This document shows, piece after piece, positions 6,617-12,108 of a stretch of 12,108 nt of DNA. Numbering within the stretch: position 1 is the stretch's first letter; each line of letters begins with the position of its first letter. The notes under the pieces are model-generated. The model was not told the origin of the DNA. It saw only the letters and a list, made by a program, of their open reading frames with translations, and ran no database searches. The position numbers were made by a program, and so were the translations under genes. Location: positions 1-12,108 of the IMG/VR virus record IMGVR_UViG_2737471846_000027; one strand, 5' to 3'. This DNA comes from a virus. Lineage: Duplodnaviria > Heunggongvirae > Uroviricota > Caudoviricetes.

Positions 6617-8371
6617 TTATAAAAACGCGTCGCAATCGTCTGTTGTAATTGCGTTGGTCTGCGTTACTCCCTTAACTTTTCGCGTAATATATTCATGCCC
6701 GTAAACTTTCGCCGCTGGCTTCATGGCCTTGCTGAACTCAGCCACGTTTAGCGGTTTGCTCCTGCCTGCGTATGCCATAAACGCCAGATAGACGCGGTAA
6801 AGGCTGTTCCTGGTCGTGTACTTCACTGAATCGCCACCGCCGCCCATCATCAGGCCGCGTGCTTCCTCCAGAAAATTCAGGAACTGGCAAAACTCAATAA
6901 CCGGATCCGTCTGTTGCTTTATTGCCAGAGCTTCATCACCGTCACGCTGTTCCAGTAGTAAAGCCCGTGCCTTCTCAGGGTCGGTAAAGTTCGCCAGCAA
7001 TCGGCGGATAATGACAGGGATTTCAGCCGCAATCTTTTCCGGTAGCTCCCTGTCTTTTTCGGCCTCACTGACGATATTGTCGAAACGGAAAATTACGCGA
7101 CGACGTGACACACCTCCGGCCCGTTCGGTGAATATCATCGGGTTATTGTTGGTAGCCAGCACCACCGCCCTGATTACCGCCGTAAAACGCTTCTCATATT
7201 TCGGGTTAATTTCCACGGGGTCGCCGCCCGTGATTTTCTTGATGCCCGTTCCTTCGCCTGTATATTTCGGCTGGTCAGCTAGGACGATAAGACGACTCCC
7301 GACAACCTGCGCACGTCCACCAGCATCATCAAGCGATGTCATTTCAGCGCTTACCGTGTTCTGTTTCCCTGCCAGAAGGCTGGCTATGTGTGTGAATGTA
7401 CTTTTACCGCTCCCGCCGTCTCCGGTGGCCTCAATAAACATCTGCCAGTCGTACCGGTTCGCCATAATCATGTACAGCGCGGCACATATACGCATCATCT
7501 TGCGCGGGTCTTTTCCGGCTGCGTGCTCAAGCCATTTATGAAAGTTTGGCGCGTTGTCGCGGATATTCTCCCCTGGTGCTGGTGGCGTGTACTCAATGCC
7601 GTTGTGCGTGGTGATCCAGTTCTCCGGCGTGTGCGGGGAAAATTCCCCCGTTTTCAGGTCAAGCGCACCATTGGCGAACGGCAGCAAATCGCCGGACGGC
7701 TCGCCCATTGGTTCGGCAATAACTTTTAACGCTTCCACGGCGTTATTGATTACGCGCTTGCTGAAAGTGGCCCTGTGCTCTGAATAGATCGCCACCATTT
7801 CGCGGCTAAGTTCCATTGTGCTGACCGGACACCATACCCCGCCGCGCCATACGTGAACAATTTCACTTTCAGGATGTACGCAAACGCCATCAAAGCGATC
7901 GGCAAGCAGCTGCGCGCGCTCACTGTCCGCCATCTGCGAAAGTTGCGCCTTTTGCTTTACCGGAAGCTCAATGACCAGACCATCAGAAAGATTCTGGCGT
8001 TCACGGGCCAGGTATTCGCGCCAGTTCTGCACCTCCTTGCCGTGCATACCCTCAGGATAAAAATTTGCATCCTGTACACCAGCCGCCGCCAGCTTTTGAC
8101 CAATCGCCTTTATCATTACTGGTGCAAGATATCCGGCCCTGAATATGCGCACGGATTTTCTGCCTTCCGGCACAATTTGCAGCTTATCCAGTTCTGATAA
8201 CTGCTGCTCCCCAAGCCACACAGGAGGCTCATTATCTCCGGCCATACGCGCGTCATGTTCCTGCCATTGTTTTGCGTGTGACCAGGCATCACTACCCGCA
8301 AAAATAATGACTTCTGTTTCTTTGTGTTTTATGCCGCGTGACTGCTGTTTTACGTTCGGTGCCAGTTTCAT
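6617..8371 (-). CDS. Replication initiation primase/helicase, phage/plasmid P4-family (D5-like NTPase domain)
   Basis: The 584-aa ORF has a Walker A motif GDGGSGKST in its C-terminal half and overall resemblance to the pri-rep proteins of P4-like and PICI elements. Iterons follow immediately downstream. Confidence 0.9.
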   Translation of the reverse strand: MKLAPNVKQQSRGIKHKETEVIIFAGSDAWSHAKQWQEHDARMAGDNEPPVWLGEQQLSELDKLQIVPEGRKSVRIFRAGYLAPVMIKAIGQKLAAAGVQDANFYPEGMHGKEVQNWREYLARERQNLSDGLVIELPVKQKAQLSQMADSERAQLLADRFDGVCVHPESEIVHVWRGGVWCPVSTMELSREMVAIYSEHRATFSKRVINNAVEALKVIAEPMGEPSGDLLPFANGALDLKTGEFSPHTPENWITTHNGIEYTPPAPGENIRDNAPNFHKWLEHAAGKDPRKMMRICAALYMIMANRYDWQMFIEATGDGGSGKSTFTHIASLLAGKQNTVSAEMTSLDDAGGRAQVVGSRLIVLADQPKYTGEGTGIKKITGGDPVEINPKYEKRFTAVIRAVVLATNNNPMIFTERAGGVSRRRVIFRFDNIVSEAEKDRELPEKIAAEIPVIIRRLLANFTDPEKARALLLEQRDGDEALAIKQQTDPVIEFCQFLNFLEEARGLMMGGGGDSVKYTTRNSLYRVYLAFMAYAGRSKPLNVAEFSKAMKPAAKVYGHEYITRKVKGVTQTNAITTDDCDAFL

Positions 8372-8667
8372 TTTTTACCCCTGAATACGTTAAGCATCTT
8401 TTTTATTTCCTGAATATTGGCGCGTGCTTTCTCCCTGCTGGTGGGCTTGCTGCGTTGCGCTGCCTGCACCAGAGAAAAATCACGGTCGAACTGATAAACG
8501 GGCATCACGCAATCATATTCGTAACCTTCACGGCGGTAAGTTACGCGCCGTTCCTCCACGCCCTTAATCATTACCGTGCCGCCGTACTGGTCGCGGTAAA
8601 TATCACCGCGCATGAATTTAGTGCGAGTTTTGCCACTGGCAGTTAAGCCAGAATATTTAAGTTTCAT
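8368..8667 (-). CDS. Hypothetical protein (99 aa), translationally coupled to the primase gene
   Basis: ATGA overlap with the primase start and a GGAGA Shine-Dalgarno. No family recognised. Confidence 0.5.
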   Translation of the reverse strand: MKLKYSGLTASGKTRTKFMRGDIYRDQYGGTVMIKGVEERRVTYRREGYEYDCVMPVYQFDRDFSLVQAAQRSKPTSREKARANIQEIKKMLNVFRGKK

Positions 8668-8672
8668 TATTT

Positions 8673-8900
8673 TTATTCTCCGGTGTGGGGCGCGTTATTA
8701 TTTTCGTGAATTGCCATTGCCTTATCCAGTTCATCAATAACAGGCGATAGTAATGTCTGAATGGCTGCAAACATTAAGGCACCTGATTCCTTACCACCTT
8801 CCGGCACTTCAATTAATTTAATTAACAACGCATTCATTTCGCGCGCTTTAATTAATGCGTTTTCAGAGTGGATTAATACTTCAAAAGGGATTTTATTCAT
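8673..8900 (-). CDS. Hypothetical protein (75 aa from ATG 8900; the ORF track extends to 8945)
   Basis: GAGGGT Shine-Dalgarno 6 nt before the internal ATG at 8900. It starts 2 nt after the upstream ORF stop. Confidence 0.45.
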   Translation of the reverse strand: MNKIPFEVLIHSENALIKAREMNALLIKLIEVPEGGKESGALMFAAIQTLLSPVIDELDKAMAIHENNNAPHTGE

Positions 8901-9129
8901 GGCGTACCCTCTGAATATCTGCGGTAAGAATTTTACCTGCCTCATTCAGTGCCATATCAGCACTAAGTTGCATAACCGCCAGCGAATGAGGGACGAAAGC
9001 CCCGGCATATTCTGTTTCGCTGGTGGCGTGCTTATGTGCCCTGTCCGCGATAACAGAAATATCAATCAGCGCGTGCATCAGCGTTTTGATGGCTTCGGCG
9101 GCTGCGTCCGGTGTGGTTTTATTGTGCAT
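8893..9129 (-). CDS. Hypothetical protein (78 aa)
   Basis: GGGGA Shine-Dalgarno. Its start overlaps the end of the upstream ORF (coupled). Confidence 0.45.
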   Translation of the reverse strand: MHNKTTPDAAAEAIKTLMHALIDISVIADRAHKHATSETEYAGAFVPHSLAVMQLSADMALNEAGKILTADIQRVRHE

Positions 9130-9331
9130 AAAGCATCCCCTGAATATTCGTGTTAATCATTCCGGCACGTTTTGTGATTTCCTGTAATGATTCCCTTGTG
9201 GCGACAATTGCTTCATCTGGTAAGTGGTAATTACACACCACGCGACCTTTATCCACATTGACCAGTAGCTGCCCTGTGAATTTCTCACGAAACTGAATGC
9301 GGTTAAGGTCAGTAAGTGACAGATTAATCAT
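9119..9331 (-). CDS. Hypothetical protein (70 aa from ATG 9331, MINLSL...)
   Basis: Its start overlaps the stop of the upstream 65-aa ORF (ATGATTAA). It is part of a tightly packed small-gene array. Confidence 0.45.
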   Translation of the reverse strand: MINLSLTDLNRIQFREKFTGQLLVNVDKGRVVCNYHLPDEAIVATRESLQEITKRAGMINTNIQGMLYAQ

Positions 9332-9521
9332 GGCGCACCTCCTGACGAATACGGGCGGCAAATACAGCAACACAACCGGACGGGCAACGGTTACGCGCTT
9401 CGCGTTCCGTCCAGGCGGTTACGTGGATGATTTGAGATTCTCCGGCACTCAGTGCCAGAAAACGCCACACAAAGGCCGTTTGTGTGTGTACAAGGTGTGG
9501 TATATGATTTACGGCAACCAT
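9324..9521 (-). CDS. Hypothetical protein (65 aa), first gene of the leftward operon
   Basis: AGGAG Shine-Dalgarno 5 nt before ATG 9521. This is the only plausible part of the 314-aa ORF 9324..10268, whose upstream portion runs through the operator region and a plus-strand gene. Confidence 0.4.
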   Translation of the reverse strand: MVAVNHIPHLVHTQTAFVWRFLALSAGESQIIHVTAWTEREARNRCPSGCVAVFAARIRQEVRHD

Positions 9522-9611
9522 AACGGCTCCTAGTTTACGTTGTTGGTTAGACGCCCCGTATGTGTTCCCAGCACTGCGGGGCGTTGATTTTTGTGTAATG
9601 GCAAGTACAAT

Positions 9612-9658
9612 GGTAATTACCATGTAGGTATAGTAATAAAGGGTAATTACCATGTCAA
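9612..9658 (-). promoter_or_regulatory. Leftward operon promoter (-35 TTGACA, 17-bp spacer, -10 TACTAT) with two identical palindromic operators GGTAATTACC (9612–9621 and 9642–9651)
   Basis: On the minus strand, TTGACA lies at 9658–9653 and TACTAT at 9635–9630. One perfect 10-bp palindrome sits in the spacer and the second just downstream of the -10. The second operator also abuts the ATG of the RHH gene. Confidence 0.55.
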
Positions 9659-9825
9659 CACCATTAGAAAAACGTTCGCCTCCATACCAAATGCGATTAC
9701 CGGAAGACTTCAGAGCGCAGCTAGAAGAAGCAGCTAAGGCCGATGGCGACACATCTTTAGCCACTTGGATTAAACGCGTTCTCCGCAAAGAATTACAGCA
9801 ACGCGGCATAGAACCCAAAGGATAA
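9652..9825 (+). CDS. Arc/MetJ-type ribbon-helix-helix transcriptional regulator (57 aa), candidate island repressor; not in the supplied ORF track
   Basis: The translation MSTPLEKRSPPYQMRLPEDFRAQLEEAAKADGDTSLATWIKRVLRKELQQRGIEPKG has the Arc signature: a beta-strand (YQMRLP), helix A, a G-x-T/S turn and helix B. The gene diverges from the leftward operon across the operator pair. Confidence 0.65.
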   Translation: MSTPLEKRSPPYQMRLPEDFRAQLEEAAKADGDTSLATWIKRVLRKELQQRGIEPKG

Positions 9826-9882
9826 AAACTATCAGCGCCGTGGTGTGAGGTATTACGGCGCATTGCTATGCAGGACAACACA

Positions 9883-10056
9883 ATGACCGATAAAGAATTG
9901 ACCAAAACATTATCACCGGCACGGAAAAGACGGCGCAGAAAGATAGAGCATGAATCAGAAAGATTCGCGCCATGTGCTTTTGCCCTTGAGCAATTCCTTA
10001 AAGAGTACAGGGAAACGCGCCCATTGCAGGTATGGCAACGAACTGAACCAGACTGA
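9883..10056 (+). CDS. Hypothetical small basic protein (57 aa from ATG 9883; the ORF track starts at 9868)
   Basis: It follows the RHH gene on the same strand, with an AGGA about 9 nt before ATG 9883, and precedes the plus-strand terminator. It carries an RKRRRRK basic patch. Weak call. Confidence 0.3.
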   Translation: MTDKELTKTLSPARKRRRRKIEHESERFAPCAFALEQFLKEYRETRPLQVWQRTEPD

Positions 10057-10150
10057 TAGCATTGCCCACCAGCCTGATAGCGGCTATCATCCCCGTGCTT
10101 ATGTTTGGGATCATATACACATAAGGCGCAGCGGGTTATCTGTTCAGAAA

Positions 10151-10179
10151 GGCGGCTCCATTTCGGGGCCGCTTTTTTT
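10151..10179 (+). terminator. Rho-independent terminator ending the RHH operon (possibly bidirectional, also serving alpA)
   Basis: An 8-bp GC-rich stem (GCGGCTCC/GGGGCCGC, one G-U pair), a 5-nt loop and a T7 run. Confidence 0.6.
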
Positions 10180-10325
10180 ATGCCTGAAAAACCCCAATTT
10201 TGTGGTTTTCCAGTCTCACCAGGGCGAACGAATCCCCGCCCACGTTCTGGCGTATATTCAATCTTCATGGTTATAGCTCTGTGTTCAGATGATTGATGTG
10301 TGGCGGCTGTGTGCCGCCAGCGTGA

Positions 10326-10514
10326 TTAATGAACTGCCTTGCAGCTATCCTTCCAGGCCAGAACCTCGGATAAAGACCAGCCAACGGAACGACCGCCAAG
10401 TTTACGACGTGATGGGAATTGTCCGGCCTTTTCCAGGCGGTAGCGACACGTACGGCTAAGGCCGGTTAGTTTTTCGCATTCTTTTTCACGTATAAACCGA
10501 TCAGTGCTTAACAC
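10326..10514 (-). CDS. alpA: AlpA-family phage transcriptional regulator / excisionase-like protein
   Basis: The 62-aa product shares the AlpA pattern with CP4-57 AlpA as I recall it (LTGLSRTCRYRL...FPSRRKLGGRSVGWSLSEVLAW versus TGMARATIYDWL...FPKKRMLGVKSVGWIEAEIDEW). It has a GTG start with a GGGGG Shine-Dalgarno. Confidence 0.85.
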   Translation of the reverse strand: MLSTDRFIREKECEKLTGLSRTCRYRLEKAGQFPSRRKLGGRSVGWSLSEVLAWKDSCKAVH

Positions 10515-10878
10515 TATTGCCCCCTTTCGTTTCTTAAAGAGTCATCAGGTGTCTTATTGTGTCGTATTGTTCCCGCTAGAGTGATGAATGGCAAATACTG
10601 AGGATGTATGATTTACAGAAAATGAAAAAGTAAGAATAAAATCTTTTAAATTCATGTTAATACAAAGGCATAAAATATTGTTCCATGCCTTTTTTCTCGC
10701 TCTTTAAAGAGTGATTCGCTAGTGTATAAAAAACCAGCAACACATTAAAAATCAGCTACTTATAAATCCGTACGCTTTTTCGCCTCTTGTTCGTAGTTGT
10801 TCCACATTGTTGCTCATTGTTGCACGTTGTATCTGTTCGCATATCCAGTATGCGCATACTGAAAAAACACGAAAAAAA

Positions 10879-12108
10879 TTATTTTCTTCTGGCTACTGGT
10901 AGCGTGGTTACGTTTTCATGTGTTCCCGCCAGTATCCCTAACCGCTCCGTCCACATATCCAGCGCATTGCGTTTCGCATCCAGATAACGGGAATGATTAT
11001 AAACTCGCTGCATTCCTGGCATCTGGTGGCCTGTAAGCTGCTCCACGACATGCGGATCAACGCCTAAATCGTTCAGCATGGTTGTAAAGGTGCGCCGGAT
11101 GTCATGCAGTGACCAGTGAGGGTGATTAAGCCTCCTGTGCGCTAATCTTCCATACTGCGATACGCTGGCCTCCTGTTTCACTTCCCCCAGCAATAAGCCC
11201 GTGTGCCTGTTCTGCTCCACCAGCTGCGTGATGAACGGCAGTATTGCTTCCGGTATAGGCCGGAATATGGCTACCTTCGTTTTGCTGTGCTCCTTCGGAA
11301 CGGTCCAGAGCATTTCGGTAAAATCCCACTCGCTGATCTCCGATAACCTCAGTTCTACCGTCCGGCATCCGAACACAATCAGGAGGCGGATTAACGCGAT
11401 GTAGTAGGGGGAGAATATTTTTTTGTCCAGTGCCTGCAATAATTCGCCCAGTTCTTTGGTGCTTAAGACACGCTCGCTTATATCCGGTTTTTTCCCAACG
11501 TCCGCCACACTCATATCATCAAGAACGTTGCTGATTGCATAGCGCCGCCTCCGGCAGAACTTAAGCGCCTGTTTGCACGTCTGTAGCAAGAATCCGGCAG
11601 TAACAGGCGTTCGCTTTGCCACCTGGTCAAAACAGGCCAGCCAGTGCCGTAGCTCGCATTTATCCAGCGGCATAGCACCAATGTGCTGTATTACGTGATT
11701 ATTAAGGCGCTTTTTCAGGGCGGCATAATCCACGCGGTTTTCCTTTGCGTACGACTCAAGCCAGTAGGTGAGCGCATCGCCAACCGTTACCGGCTTTAAC
11801 GCTTCCTGTACGGTGTAATTAAGCTCATGACGTGGATTTTTCCCCTCTGCCAGCCATGCGCGACACTGGGCGGCTTTTTCCCTGGCTGATTTCAGGCTCA
11901 GATCAGGATAATTTCCCAGCTTAATGCGTTCCGGTGGTGCCCCCCTTCCCGTTCCGGCCCTGTAAGTGAAATACCAGGTTAAAAGGCCACTGGTTGAATG
12001 CCTGACGCTCAGGTTTCCACCGTCATTAAGAAAGGCTGTTTTTTGGGCGGGTGTGCCGTTGATTTTCCTCAGCTGTGTATCGCTCAGTTTGTTAAGTGCT
12101 CTGCTCAT
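10879..12108 (-). CDS. int: Tyrosine site-specific integrase, P4-like family; start codon at the last base of the window
   Basis: The 409-aa product has an N-terminal arm-binding-type region and a C-terminal catalytic domain with R...HxxR...Y residues (HDIRRT, LTGH, YNHSRY). Confidence 0.95.
   Translation of the reverse strand: MSRALNKLSDTQLRKINGTPAQKTAFLNDGGNLSVRHSTSGLLTWYFTYRAGTGRGAPPERIKLGNYPDLSLKSAREKAAQCRAWLAEGKNPRHELNYTVQEALKPVTVGDALTYWLESYAKENRVDYAALKKRLNNHVIQHIGAMPLDKCELRHWLACFDQVAKRTPVTAGFLLQTCKQALKFCRRRRYAISNVLDDMSVADVGKKPDISERVLSTKELGELLQALDKKIFSPYYIALIRLLIVFGCRTVELRLSEISEWDFTEMLWTVPKEHSKTKVAIFRPIPEAILPFITQLVEQNRHTGLLLGEVKQEASVSQYGRLAHRRLNHPHWSLHDIRRTFTTMLNDLGVDPHVVEQLTGHQMPGMQRVYNHSRYLDAKRNALDMWTERLGILAGTHENVTTLPVARRK

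Follow-up and report, generated by a model that had tools for sequence, protein, structure and literature searches.

What holds the replication genes of a phage satellite in check while the element sits in the chromosome of its host? The question is raised by a region of the window analysed here, the 12,108-nucleotide stretch that opens the IMG/VR virus record IMGVR_UViG_2737471846_000027. The window is an Escherichia coli chromosomal island bounded by phoQ (1-1461, + strand) and a tyrosine integrase gene (10879-12108, - strand), and the region in question is the regulatory cassette of a phage-inducible chromosomal island (PICI) of the EcCICFT073 type. The cassette separates alpA from the replication operon, and its transcription runs counter to that of the remaining island. 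It contains a gene for a 57-residue ribbon-helix-helix (RHH) protein, a pair of identical palindromes and a candidate antisense RNA. We estimate a probability of roughly 65% that together these form a repression switch on the island's replication operon. An initial annotation of this DNA had singled out the gene and the palindromes and had proposed a master repressor inactivated by a helper-phage protein; it had missed a conserved candidate antisense RNA layer (9516-9592) as well as the masking of the cassette genes by a shadow open reading frame (ORF) on the opposite strand.

A small gene beneath a shadow ORF

Two overlapping reading frames compete for the same stretch of DNA:

9652-9825, + strand: RHH gene, 57 aa (MSTPLEKRSPPYQMRLPEDFRAQLEEAAKADGDTSLATWIKRVLRKELQQRGIEPKG), assigned from PHROG 228, homologues, the ratio of non-synonymous to synonymous substitution rates (dN/dS), an AlphaFold2 (AF2) model and fold neighbours
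9324-10268, - strand: mechanical ORF of 314 aa, in frame with the icd-like gene, its upstream 249 codons forming a shadow ORF over the RHH cassette

Homologues of the small protein number 93, are 56-58 aa long and 61-98% identical to it, and are spread over dozens of gammaproteobacterial genera (79 genomic loci). Their hosts include Escherichia, Salmonella, Yersinia, Xenorhabdus, Photorhabdus, Pectobacterium, Pantoea, Serratia, Gilliamella, Pasteurellaceae, Aeromonas and Oceanimonas, among others. Compared with the allele of E. coli E2863, the gene differs at 25 nucleotides, of which 24 are synonymous and one non-synonymous in the + frame (dN/dS 0.01; dS about 1.2, with synonymous sites saturated). 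Read in the minus frame, the same 25 substitutions comprise 17 synonymous and 8 non-synonymous changes. By this comparison the 57-aa ORF is a genuine gene under purifying selection.

A sceptic might hold that the long minus-strand ORF, 314 aa here and 247 aa in the capsid-forming PICI (cf-PICI) of O157:H7, is the real gene and that the small ORF and palindromes are incidental. So many open codons are improbable by chance, the 314-aa ORF has been deposited as a protein from several E. coli genomes, the Prokaryotic Genome Annotation Pipeline (PGAP) annotates a coding sequence (CDS) or pseudogene, and among 52 loci with an identifiable start codon the minus frame stays open across the RHH gene in 27. 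In the remaining 25 of the 52, however, stop codons within the RHH gene break that frame, and a 13-nt deletion interrupts it in one E. coli locus (L085). The family matches of the 314-aa ORF are confined to its last ~60 aa, the icd-like part, leaving its first 250 residues without any; similarity of the minus frame in other genera ends at the borders of the RHH gene and is lower in identity than that of the + frame; and synonymous changes outnumber non-synonymous ones 24:1 in the RHH frame and 17:8 in the other. The two frames share their third codon positions, as shadow ORFs classically do. On the evidence of selection, conservation and stop codons the long ORF was rejected as a true gene, and we regard this alternative as extremely improbable.

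The shadow has left its mark on public annotation. RefSeq records with identical DNA show no + strand gene here, and PGAP places a minus-strand 'Icd-like' pseudogene at 9675-10268; for these records the earlier description of the RHH gene as unannotated is correct. It does not extend to other assemblies, where the identical 57-aa protein is deposited as 'hypothetical protein', or to other RefSeq genomes, in which close alleles are annotated. The equivalent 247-aa ORF of the O157:H7 cf-PICI is annotated as a CDS (L087 11026-11769, - strand), and the long antisense frame is variously labelled CDS, 'prophage protein' or 'Icd-like' pseudogene, depending on the record. In several genera the antisense frame extends into the first leftward gene (473 aa in L030), and such extension may exceed its chance frequency.

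Fold and family of the protein

The initial annotation had read the 57-aa ORF as an Arc/MetJ-type RHH protein, an assignment upheld by the family match, the predicted fold and its neighbours, the homologues and the synonymous excess. PHROG 228, 'Arc-like repressor', matches at 1.5e-6. The AF2 model has an extended N-terminus followed by helices 18-31 and 36-50 (predicted local distance difference test score, pLDDT, 78), and every structural neighbour returned by a fold search with the model is an RHH protein, VapB12, MazE9, CopA_SO and Arc (1par and 1bdv) included. The protein has the beta-alpha-alpha topology of the superfamily (about 45-55 residues), its N-terminal strand alternates polar and hydrophobic residues, and G32-D33-T34 occupies the position of the G-x-S/T/N turn between the helices, D31 and G32 being invariant among 25 sequences. 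About 7 residues follow helix 2, and there is no C-terminal toxin-binding extension. A sequence search of solved structures gave spurious top matches to designed helical repeat proteins and AmrZ only at E 1.1.

In a profile-to-sequence comparison with P22 Arc by hhalign, RSPPYQMRLPEDF...DGDTS was aligned with KMPQFNLRWPREV...NGRSV at a probability of 21%. RSPPYQMRLP..DGDTS thereby falls on KMPQFNLRWP..NGRSV of Arc, with strand PPYQMRLP opposite PQFNLRWP, and Q/P11, Q13 and R15 stand opposite the DNA-contacting Q9, N11 and R13. The 57-aa protein is thus a member of the RHH superfamily that lies outside both Pfam Arc and NCBIfam YlcI/YnfO.

Probable twin operators and predicted facing promoters

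The putative operators and promoters lie close together around the start codon of the RHH gene:

9642-9651: putative proximal operator O_P, GGTAATTACC, inside the spacer of P_left and directly abutting the RHH ATG
9612-9621: putative distal operator O_D, GGTAATTACC, at about +2 to +11 of P_left and about -6 to +4 of P_right
9630-9658, - strand: predicted promoter P_left of the replication operon, TTGACA (9658-9653), 17 nt, TACTAT (9635-9630), start at ~9623
9584-9611, + strand: candidate promoter P_right of the RHH gene, TTGATT (9584-9589), 16 nt, TACAAT (9606-9611), 9/12 consensus positions

The two identical perfect 10-bp palindromes of the initial annotation are present exactly as claimed: GGTAATTACC occurs in exactly two perfect copies 30 bp apart, the distal one within a 14-bp palindrome, ATGGTAATTACCAT (9610-9623). 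With at most one mismatch allowed, 0.26 occurrences are expected in the whole window and 3 were observed, a count reached in 0/200 shuffles. A scan for further operators across the island found only one site with a single mismatch, GGTAATTACA at 9226-9235 (+ strand), within a minus-strand ORF at 9119-9373; it is probably due to chance.

The placement described earlier, with one palindrome in the spacer of a TTGACA-17-TACTAT promoter and the other just past its -10, was likewise recovered. P_left agrees with the consensus at 10/12 positions and is the best sigma-70 match between 9000 and 11000; the proximal palindrome lies wholly within its spacer and the distal one 9-18 nt downstream of its -10. 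The top-scoring sigma-70 match on the minus strand places its -35 at this very position, adjoining the proximal operator, in 49/52 loci, and in 43/52 at least 10/12 positions agree with the consensus. In a group of loci (L032 and L034-L038) the start codon of the RHH gene has shifted, yet the -35 remains next to the operator, and conservation of the -35 is therefore not a by-product of the coding sequence. What lies downstream of P_left varies and always leads to the replication module, in Xenorhabdus directly to an 812-aa primase gene. A 55-bp promoter and operator stretch differs between the window and E2863 at 4 positions, 0 of them in palindromes or hexamers.

The RHH gene was said to diverge from the leftward operon. 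It does lie on the opposite strand, but the arrangement is not one of simple divergence: its opening ATG-TCA-A is the reverse complement of the -35 hexamer of P_left. Because the start codon overlaps this -35, any promoter belonging to the RHH gene itself has to be located within the stretch covered by the leftward transcript, and the predicted P_left and P_right therefore stand face to face with overlapping footprints. The predicted start of P_right (~9618) falls within the distal operator, and in 23-26/52 loci a -10 (TACAAT, TAAAAT, TATAAT or TATACT) abuts that operator at the same offset.

When the 52 loci were compared together with E. coli alleles, the operator sequence was found to co-vary with the predicted DNA-reading beta-strand, namely residues 13 and 14 and the N-terminal arm. 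The pairing of protein and operator is consistent across at least five specificity classes:

KRSP[QP][YF]QMRL: operator GGTAATTACC, the distal copy often GGTCATTACC or GGTCGTTACC; about 27 loci
KRSPQFPMRL: operator GGTATATACC / GGTGTATACA; Photorhabdus, Citrobacter
K[TS]xDQYQ[IL]RL, in Pasteurellaceae NKSxQYQ[IL]RL: operator TGTAATTACA; about 19 loci
NPPFQFRL: operator TGTGTCATTACACA / TGTGTATATACACA; E. coli, Leminorella
SPQFRMRI: operator GGTGACCAC(C), twice (GGTGACCACC); O157:H7 cf-PICI

Because of this covariation across lineages, the palindromes are very probably the operators of the RHH protein; the comparative evidence for a cognate protein-operator pair is strong, and from it we infer binding. 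Spacing between the operators is 29-31 bp in 36/50 loci. Within a class the proximal site is nearly always a perfect palindrome and the distal site often degenerate, which suggests a hierarchy in which P_left would be shut first and the promoter of the RHH gene only at a higher level of protein. Of the earlier proposal of a switch for the replication operon, the layout of a repressor-controlled promoter is thus retained (49/52 loci, covarying operators), and the layout and covariation strongly suggest that the RHH protein represses the replication operon.

A candidate antisense RNA

Next to the operators, across the start of the first gene of the leftward operon, lies a further predicted element, on the strand of the RHH gene:

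9516-9594, + strand: candidate cis-antisense RNA of ~77 nt (ends ~9592), with a terminator hairpin at 9550-9585 and a T tract at 9586-9594
9480-9508, + strand: its candidate promoter P_as, TTGTGT (9480-9485), 17 nt, TATGAT (9503-9508), inside codons 5-14 of the icd-like gene
9324-9521, - strand: icd-like gene, 65 aa, first of the leftward operon (NCBIfam NF033153 at 5e-18; PHROG 29966/1743)

By its position, the candidate RNA would pair with the Shine-Dalgarno sequence (9530-9527) and the AUG (9521-9519) of the icd-like gene, and also with the 5' untranslated region of the P_left transcript. Its hairpin, situated between the icd-like start codon and P_right, has a predicted free energy of -24.9 kcal/mol (z -4.5), and among 29 distinct loci compensatory changes occur in 9/13 hairpin pairs. 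Hairpin cells pair in 94.9% of cases on the + strand versus 83.5% on the - strand, with 46 G.U versus 3 A.C cells; the better pairing on the + strand indicates that the hairpin was selected as RNA on the strand of the RHH gene. At least 5 T follow within 9 nt of the stem in 26/29 loci, as predicted of an intrinsic terminator on the + strand. With a covariance model trained on the 29 hairpin-locus sequences, the motif was recovered in more than 30 loci outside the training set (E 1e-8 to 1e-16; the match in the window is 9514-9607), always on the strand of the RHH gene and upstream of a small regulator gene. Overall the motif is found in over 60 loci, EcCICFT073 and two cf-PICIs among them, and in two copies where cassettes are in tandem.

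The promoter is conserved in its own way. When 62 distinct homologous loci were aligned at the reverse complement of the first leftward gene's start codon, the position matrix revealed an extended -10 signature: the hexamer opens with T (0.94) and A (0.95) and closes with T (0.95), a G (0.85) precedes it by two bases, and the predicted start, which faces the start codon, is an A (0.92). This signature is kept although the overlapping N-terminal peptides differ (MADTQH, MANANS, MVAVNH, MAKPDY and others). Taken together, hairpin and promoter define a candidate cis-antisense RNA of ~77 nt.

A block between the Shine-Dalgarno complement and the hairpin, TAACGGTT.TGGTYAGA, is conserved at the nucleotide level across genera. 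A 15-nt string that includes the -10 and start of P_as (TATGATTTACGGCAA, 9503-9517) recurs upstream of alpA at 10607-10621 as TATGATTTACAGAAA (87% identity), where it may mark another antisense or divergent promoter or may have arisen by chance. A known immunity RNA of the P1 C4 / P4 CI type upstream of the icd-like gene was also considered, and the Rfam scan found none there: run over the whole window with E up to 1, it gave no family at the antisense-RNA region and three matches only, all to implausible eukaryotic families elsewhere.

A proposed circuit and its relatives

How might these parts work together? RHH proteins are obligate dimers that use the beta-sheet to bind palindromic or repeated operators, and here dimers, one per site, would occupy the two palindromes, which are spaced by 30 bp and share one helix face. 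As the proximal site fills the spacer of P_left, its occupancy would block RNA polymerase there, while binding to the distal site would cover the starts of both promoters and so make the RHH gene autoregulated. Since the promoters face each other with overlapping footprints, firing of P_left would occlude P_right and the circuit would be switch-like. Any leftward transcript that leaked through would be met by the antisense RNA, which, starting opposite the icd-like start codon, would stop its translation. Protein and RNA together may thereby silence the replication operon of the integrated island in an island-specific ('heteroimmune') manner.

Facing promoters with a repressor gene on one arm are known from the switches of phages P2 (C/Cox) and 186 (CI/Apl). 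There, too, opposing promoters give overlapping, mutually interfering transcription; the repressors of those phages are not RHH proteins, however, and their start sites are tens of bp apart, whereas here they nearly coincide. No counterpart of Cox or Apl, the counter-repressors of those switches, was identified in the island.

A closer relative is the immI region of P22, in which the RHH repressors Arc and Mnt act beside the sar antisense RNA. Common to both are an RHH repressor of ~53-57 aa, an operator between and around the -10 and -35 of a strong promoter that also affects an overlapping opposing promoter, and a small antisense RNA able to pair with the ribosome site of whichever gene comes first in the repressed operon. 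The beta-strands PQFNLRWP and PPYQMRLP can be aligned and the G-x-S/T turn is shared, but similarity in sequence is marginal (Pfam Arc below threshold, hhalign probability 21%). Arc binds one 21-bp operator as a tetramer, in contrast to the two 10-bp palindromes 30 bp apart found here, and immI controls an antirepressor in a phage rather than the replication functions of a satellite.

Plasmids provide the other parallel. RNAII of pMV158, and CopB and CopA of R1, are components of plasmid copy control. As proposed for the island, replication genes are doubly controlled in these plasmids: a tiny repressor binds at the promoter, and a short antisense RNA, ending in an intrinsic terminator, targets the translation-initiation region. 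Whereas copG of pMV158 is co-transcribed with repB from the promoter it represses, the RHH gene lies on the opposite strand, face to face with the operon; and the island, unlike either plasmid, is integrated and phage-dependent, with an extra positive input from AlpA. CopG itself is a very small RHH transcriptional repressor (PMC2724298).

These parallels invite a different reading, that the protein acts late, limiting overexpression of the replication operon and setting copy number after excision, as P22 Arc or CopG/CopB do. The nearest architectural analogues (pMV158, R1 and P22 immI) are indeed copy-number or late-acting controls, the distal operator over the start of the RHH gene implies autoregulation, and a paired antisense RNA is typical of replicon copy control. 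Against this, a promoter matching 10-11/12 consensus positions in front of a primase operon needs silencing in the integrated state, and family scans of the island reveal no other evident repressor candidate. The two roles are in any case not mutually exclusive; as a replacement for a role in maintaining the integrated state, we consider the late-acting one unlikely.

Induction of the prototype islands through AlpA

The remaining part of the initial proposal concerned release: the RHH protein was cast as a master repressor that a helper-phage protein binds and inactivates, inducing the island, as happens with Stl (Rpr). The locus does resemble that of Stl in lying next to int, opposite to the excision-replication operon, and in its presumed role in quiescence (PMC6092414). 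Its layout fits a repressor guarding the replication operon, its many specificity classes are expected of an immunity-type repressor, and which helper-encoded factor induces Gram-negative PICIs had yet to be found (PMC6092414). Yet the RHH protein is not homologous to Stl, which is described as a far larger protein of the helix-turn-helix type that specific helper proteins bind and so release, and with ~7 residues past helix 2 it offers little surface to a dedicated antirepressor.

There is also what has been published on the induction of these Gram-negative islands, which proceeds through the activator AlpA. In EcCICFT073 alpA is required, and overexpression of AlpA alone is reported to lead to excision and runaway replication without a helper; helper phage raises alpA transcription (PMC6092414). 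AlpA overexpression alone is likewise reported to induce EcCIEDL933 and has been used to drive it (10.1101/2025.02.11.637232). An alpA mutant of EcCIEDL933 is not induced, and AlpA-dependent helper induction and transfer have been shown for both islands. Since AlpA is thus necessary and sufficient in the prototype islands, helper input appears to enter at alpA and not through titration of the RHH protein. A helper protein that inactivates the repressor is accordingly disfavoured, as is the status of 'master' repressor in the sense of Stl; we judge this mode of control unlikely, slightly more so than the late-acting one.

If the RHH protein and antisense RNA instead form a brake that AlpA overrides, two routes may be envisaged. 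Leftward transcription could run antisense through the cassette; no minus-strand terminator is predicted between alpA and the RHH gene, though a hairpin at 10151-10179 might act weakly both ways. Alternatively, AlpA could act directly near P_left.

Several observations weigh against a repression switch built from these parts. AlpA being necessary and sufficient, the RHH repressor cannot be the sole or top-level control. P_right is weak (8-9/12) and not evident in loci of the TGTAATTACA class, and the RHH gene might therefore be read through from the antisense promoter; that promoter, P_as, in turn matches only 8/12 positions in the window and lacks the upstream extended -10 G. Family models recognise the protein poorly: Pfam PF03869 (Arc) scores 14.3 bits (E 0.038) over residues 9-32 only, below its gathering threshold of 20.4 bits, and NCBIfam NF041551 (YlcI/YnfO) scores 18.7 bits (E 1.4e-3), below its curated cut-off of 30. 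The specificity classes are few and phylogenetically clustered, their covariation being uncorrected for the tree. Finally, binding, repression, transcription starts, translation, the existence of the RNA and the mechanism of release are all things that we infer.

The island and its exchangeable cassette

The surroundings of the cassette identify the kind of element to which it belongs:

10879-12108, - strand: integrase gene (Pfam Phage_integrase and Arm-DNA-bind_3)
10326-10514, - strand: alpA-like excisionase/regulator gene (PHROG 2790 at 2.5e-17)
8368-8667, - strand: DUF4222 gene of the leftward operon
6617-8371, - strand: primase gene (TIGR01613 / D5_N)

Almost all island genes are read leftward: alpA-like, icd-like, small ORFs, DUF4222 and a P4-type primase. 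The leftward operon runs from the icd-like gene through small ORFs and DUF4222 to the primase, its neighbouring genes overlapping or abutting, and farther left in the window are genes for a major capsid protein, a head decoration protein and a small terminase subunit. Gram-negative PICIs are elements of about 10-15 kb, without lysis or tail genes, at a specific attachment site; the island in the window fits this description and has the order typical of the EcCICFT073 type, namely int, alpA, regulatory region, primase/replication and packaging-related genes. It shares with EcCICFT073 of strain CFT073 the gene order and the roxA/phoQ attachment site, adjoining phoQ. An AT-rich long inverted repeat at 2796-2901 (- strand), in the stretch that separates the small terminase gene from the island end nearer phoQ, accounts for the only Rfam matches of the window, which are spurious (microRNA/XIST); it is possibly a terminator, or a packaging- or attachment-related site.

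Window and EcCICFT073 are collinear at 88-97% identity with a sole exception, a swapped block at 8698-9833 that holds the RHH cassette. In EcCICFT073 a small opposite-strand gene of the YlcI/YnfO type adjoins twin GGTGTGGCCCAC repeats, which overlap a TTGACG-18-TATAGT promoter. YlcI/YnfO proteins (NF041551; PHROG 949, 6522) occupy the same slot in other alleles of these islands, EcCICFT073 included, and their loci share the layout, with repeats across the leftward promoter and the same RNA motif upstream. They differ from the protein of the window in belonging to other PHROG families and in having other operator sequences, and the window protein scores below the cut-off of their family. A literature search on YlcI/YnfO found no functional study.

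A comparison of window 8698-9833 with EcCICFT073 (L089) and with further loci (L081-L085 and L087) shows the regulatory cassette (early small genes, icd-like gene, RNA motif, operators and regulator gene) to be a mosaic module exchanged between otherwise collinear islands. E. coli islands have at least five operator/regulator types, Arc-like and YlcI/YnfO-type, in a manner reminiscent of the heteroimmunity regions of lambdoid phages. Some of them carry tandem double cassettes between the icd-like gene and alpA (L084 600-2050, L085 720-2050), with the YlcI/YnfO-type regulator beside the icd-like gene, then the Arc-like one, each with its own copy of the RNA motif; such tandems imply either a double lock or a recombination intermediate. 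DNA similar to the 679-bp regulatory region is present in 1780/5426 complete E. coli genomes.

The RHH module also occurs in cf-PICIs. An Arc-like allele is found in an O157:H7 cf-PICI that occupies the same attachment site and presumably belongs to the EcCIEDL933 type. The protein is nearly absent from true phages, with 4 matches in a phage database, the best of them in 'Pasteurella phage Pmp8'. That record (OR544139.1, L086; 15.3 kb) combines the RHH cassette with the gene content of a cf-PICI: an int remnant, alpA-like, primase, terminase subunits, HNH, portal and protease genes, with no tail or lysis genes within the part examined. OR544139.1 is probably a satellite rather than a phage.

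Downstream of the RHH gene

Two further features complete the + strand unit:

9883-10056, + strand: second small gene, 57 aa from the ATG at 9883 (62 aa from the ATG at 9868), PHROG 21027 at 3e-16
10151-10179, + strand: predicted intrinsic terminator, GGCGGCTCC-ATTTC-GGGGCCGC followed by T7, which ends the + strand unit

The second small ORF appears to share a transcript with the RHH gene. Its 38 homologues (57-70 aa) are all from Escherichia or Shigella, and both CFT073 and further RefSeq genomes have it as an annotated CDS. Although its dN/dS (0.44-0.62, against 0.39-0.86 on the other strand) does not discriminate, the ORF is taken as real because of the PHROG match and its conserved length. 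The product is basic (RKRRRRK ... EHESERFAPCAF), and the gene is kept beside whichever regulator allele is present.

Could the RHH protein be an antitoxin and autoregulator, paired with the downstream 57/62-aa ORF as its toxin and unrelated to island control? Many RHH proteins are antitoxins, VapB12, MazE9 and CopA_SO are among its structural neighbours, some sources label homologues 'HicB family antitoxin', and the allele of the O157:H7 cf-PICI (L087) matches Pfam HicB at 4.9e-4. The putative partner is, however, restricted to Escherichia and Shigella and missing from 78/79 loci in other taxa, where the RHH gene stands alone and may be followed directly by the alpA-like gene (within about 175 nt in Xenorhabdus) or by the integrase gene (within about 150 nt in Pectobacterium). 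The lineage restriction of the one and the solitary occurrence of the other disfavour a toxin-antitoxin pair. The operators, moreover, cover the promoter of the opposing operon and not just that of the RHH gene. With neither a conserved adjacent toxin nor a C-terminal toxin-binding extension on the RHH protein, the toxin-antitoxin reading was rejected as very improbable.

The terminator at 10151-10179, a strong one by prediction, is the terminal hairpin of a longer fold (-33.7 kcal/mol, z -5.1), and an equivalent one is predicted in EcCICFT073. A simple terminator scan missed it because the extended stem takes up part of the T run; an A tract upstream could allow weak bidirectional termination. 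Among E. coli alleles the non-coding stretch 10062-10182 (+ strand) is conserved more than the second small ORF. It contains a promoter-like TTGCCC-17-TATCAT (10062-10090) and folds as three hairpins ending in the terminator, so that it possibly encodes a small RNA (sRNA) of ~85 nt. Two 14-nt direct repeats, ACCAGNCTGATAGC, at 10047-10060 and 10068-10081 (21 bp apart), overlap this possible sRNA and could be a protein-binding site.

Implications for Gram-negative islands

The molecular parts described here are all of known kinds. What appears to be new is their combination in phage satellites, the start codon embedded in an opposing -35 with promoters face to face, and the heteroimmune specificity classes; a search of the openly accessible literature found no report in which RHH or Arc-like proteins, or antisense RNAs, are connected with the control of PICIs or other satellites. 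The global repressor of Gram-negative PICIs was described in 2018 as 'unclear', with control exerted via the activator AlpA (PMC6092414).

A broader proposal may be put forward tentatively, at somewhat less than even odds: that Gram-negative PICIs and cf-PICIs, including EcCICFT073 and EcCIEDL933, carry a dedicated repression system of hypervariable small RHH repressors (Arc-like or YlcI/YnfO-type) with matching operators, coupled to an antisense RNA, which serves as an island-specific immunity and copy-control switch and is overridden by AlpA. Such a system would have escaped notice because its genes run opposite to those of the rest of the island and a long shadow ORF hides them in annotated genomes. 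If true, this would explain why AlpA has seemed to be the only regulator.

PICIs are abundant, mobilise virulence and defence genes, and shape the dynamics between phages and their hosts. The RHH cassette is a concrete candidate for the missing negative control of the Gram-negative PICIs, and its natural variants of protein and operator may be used in studies of DNA recognition by RHH proteins or as orthogonal repressors.

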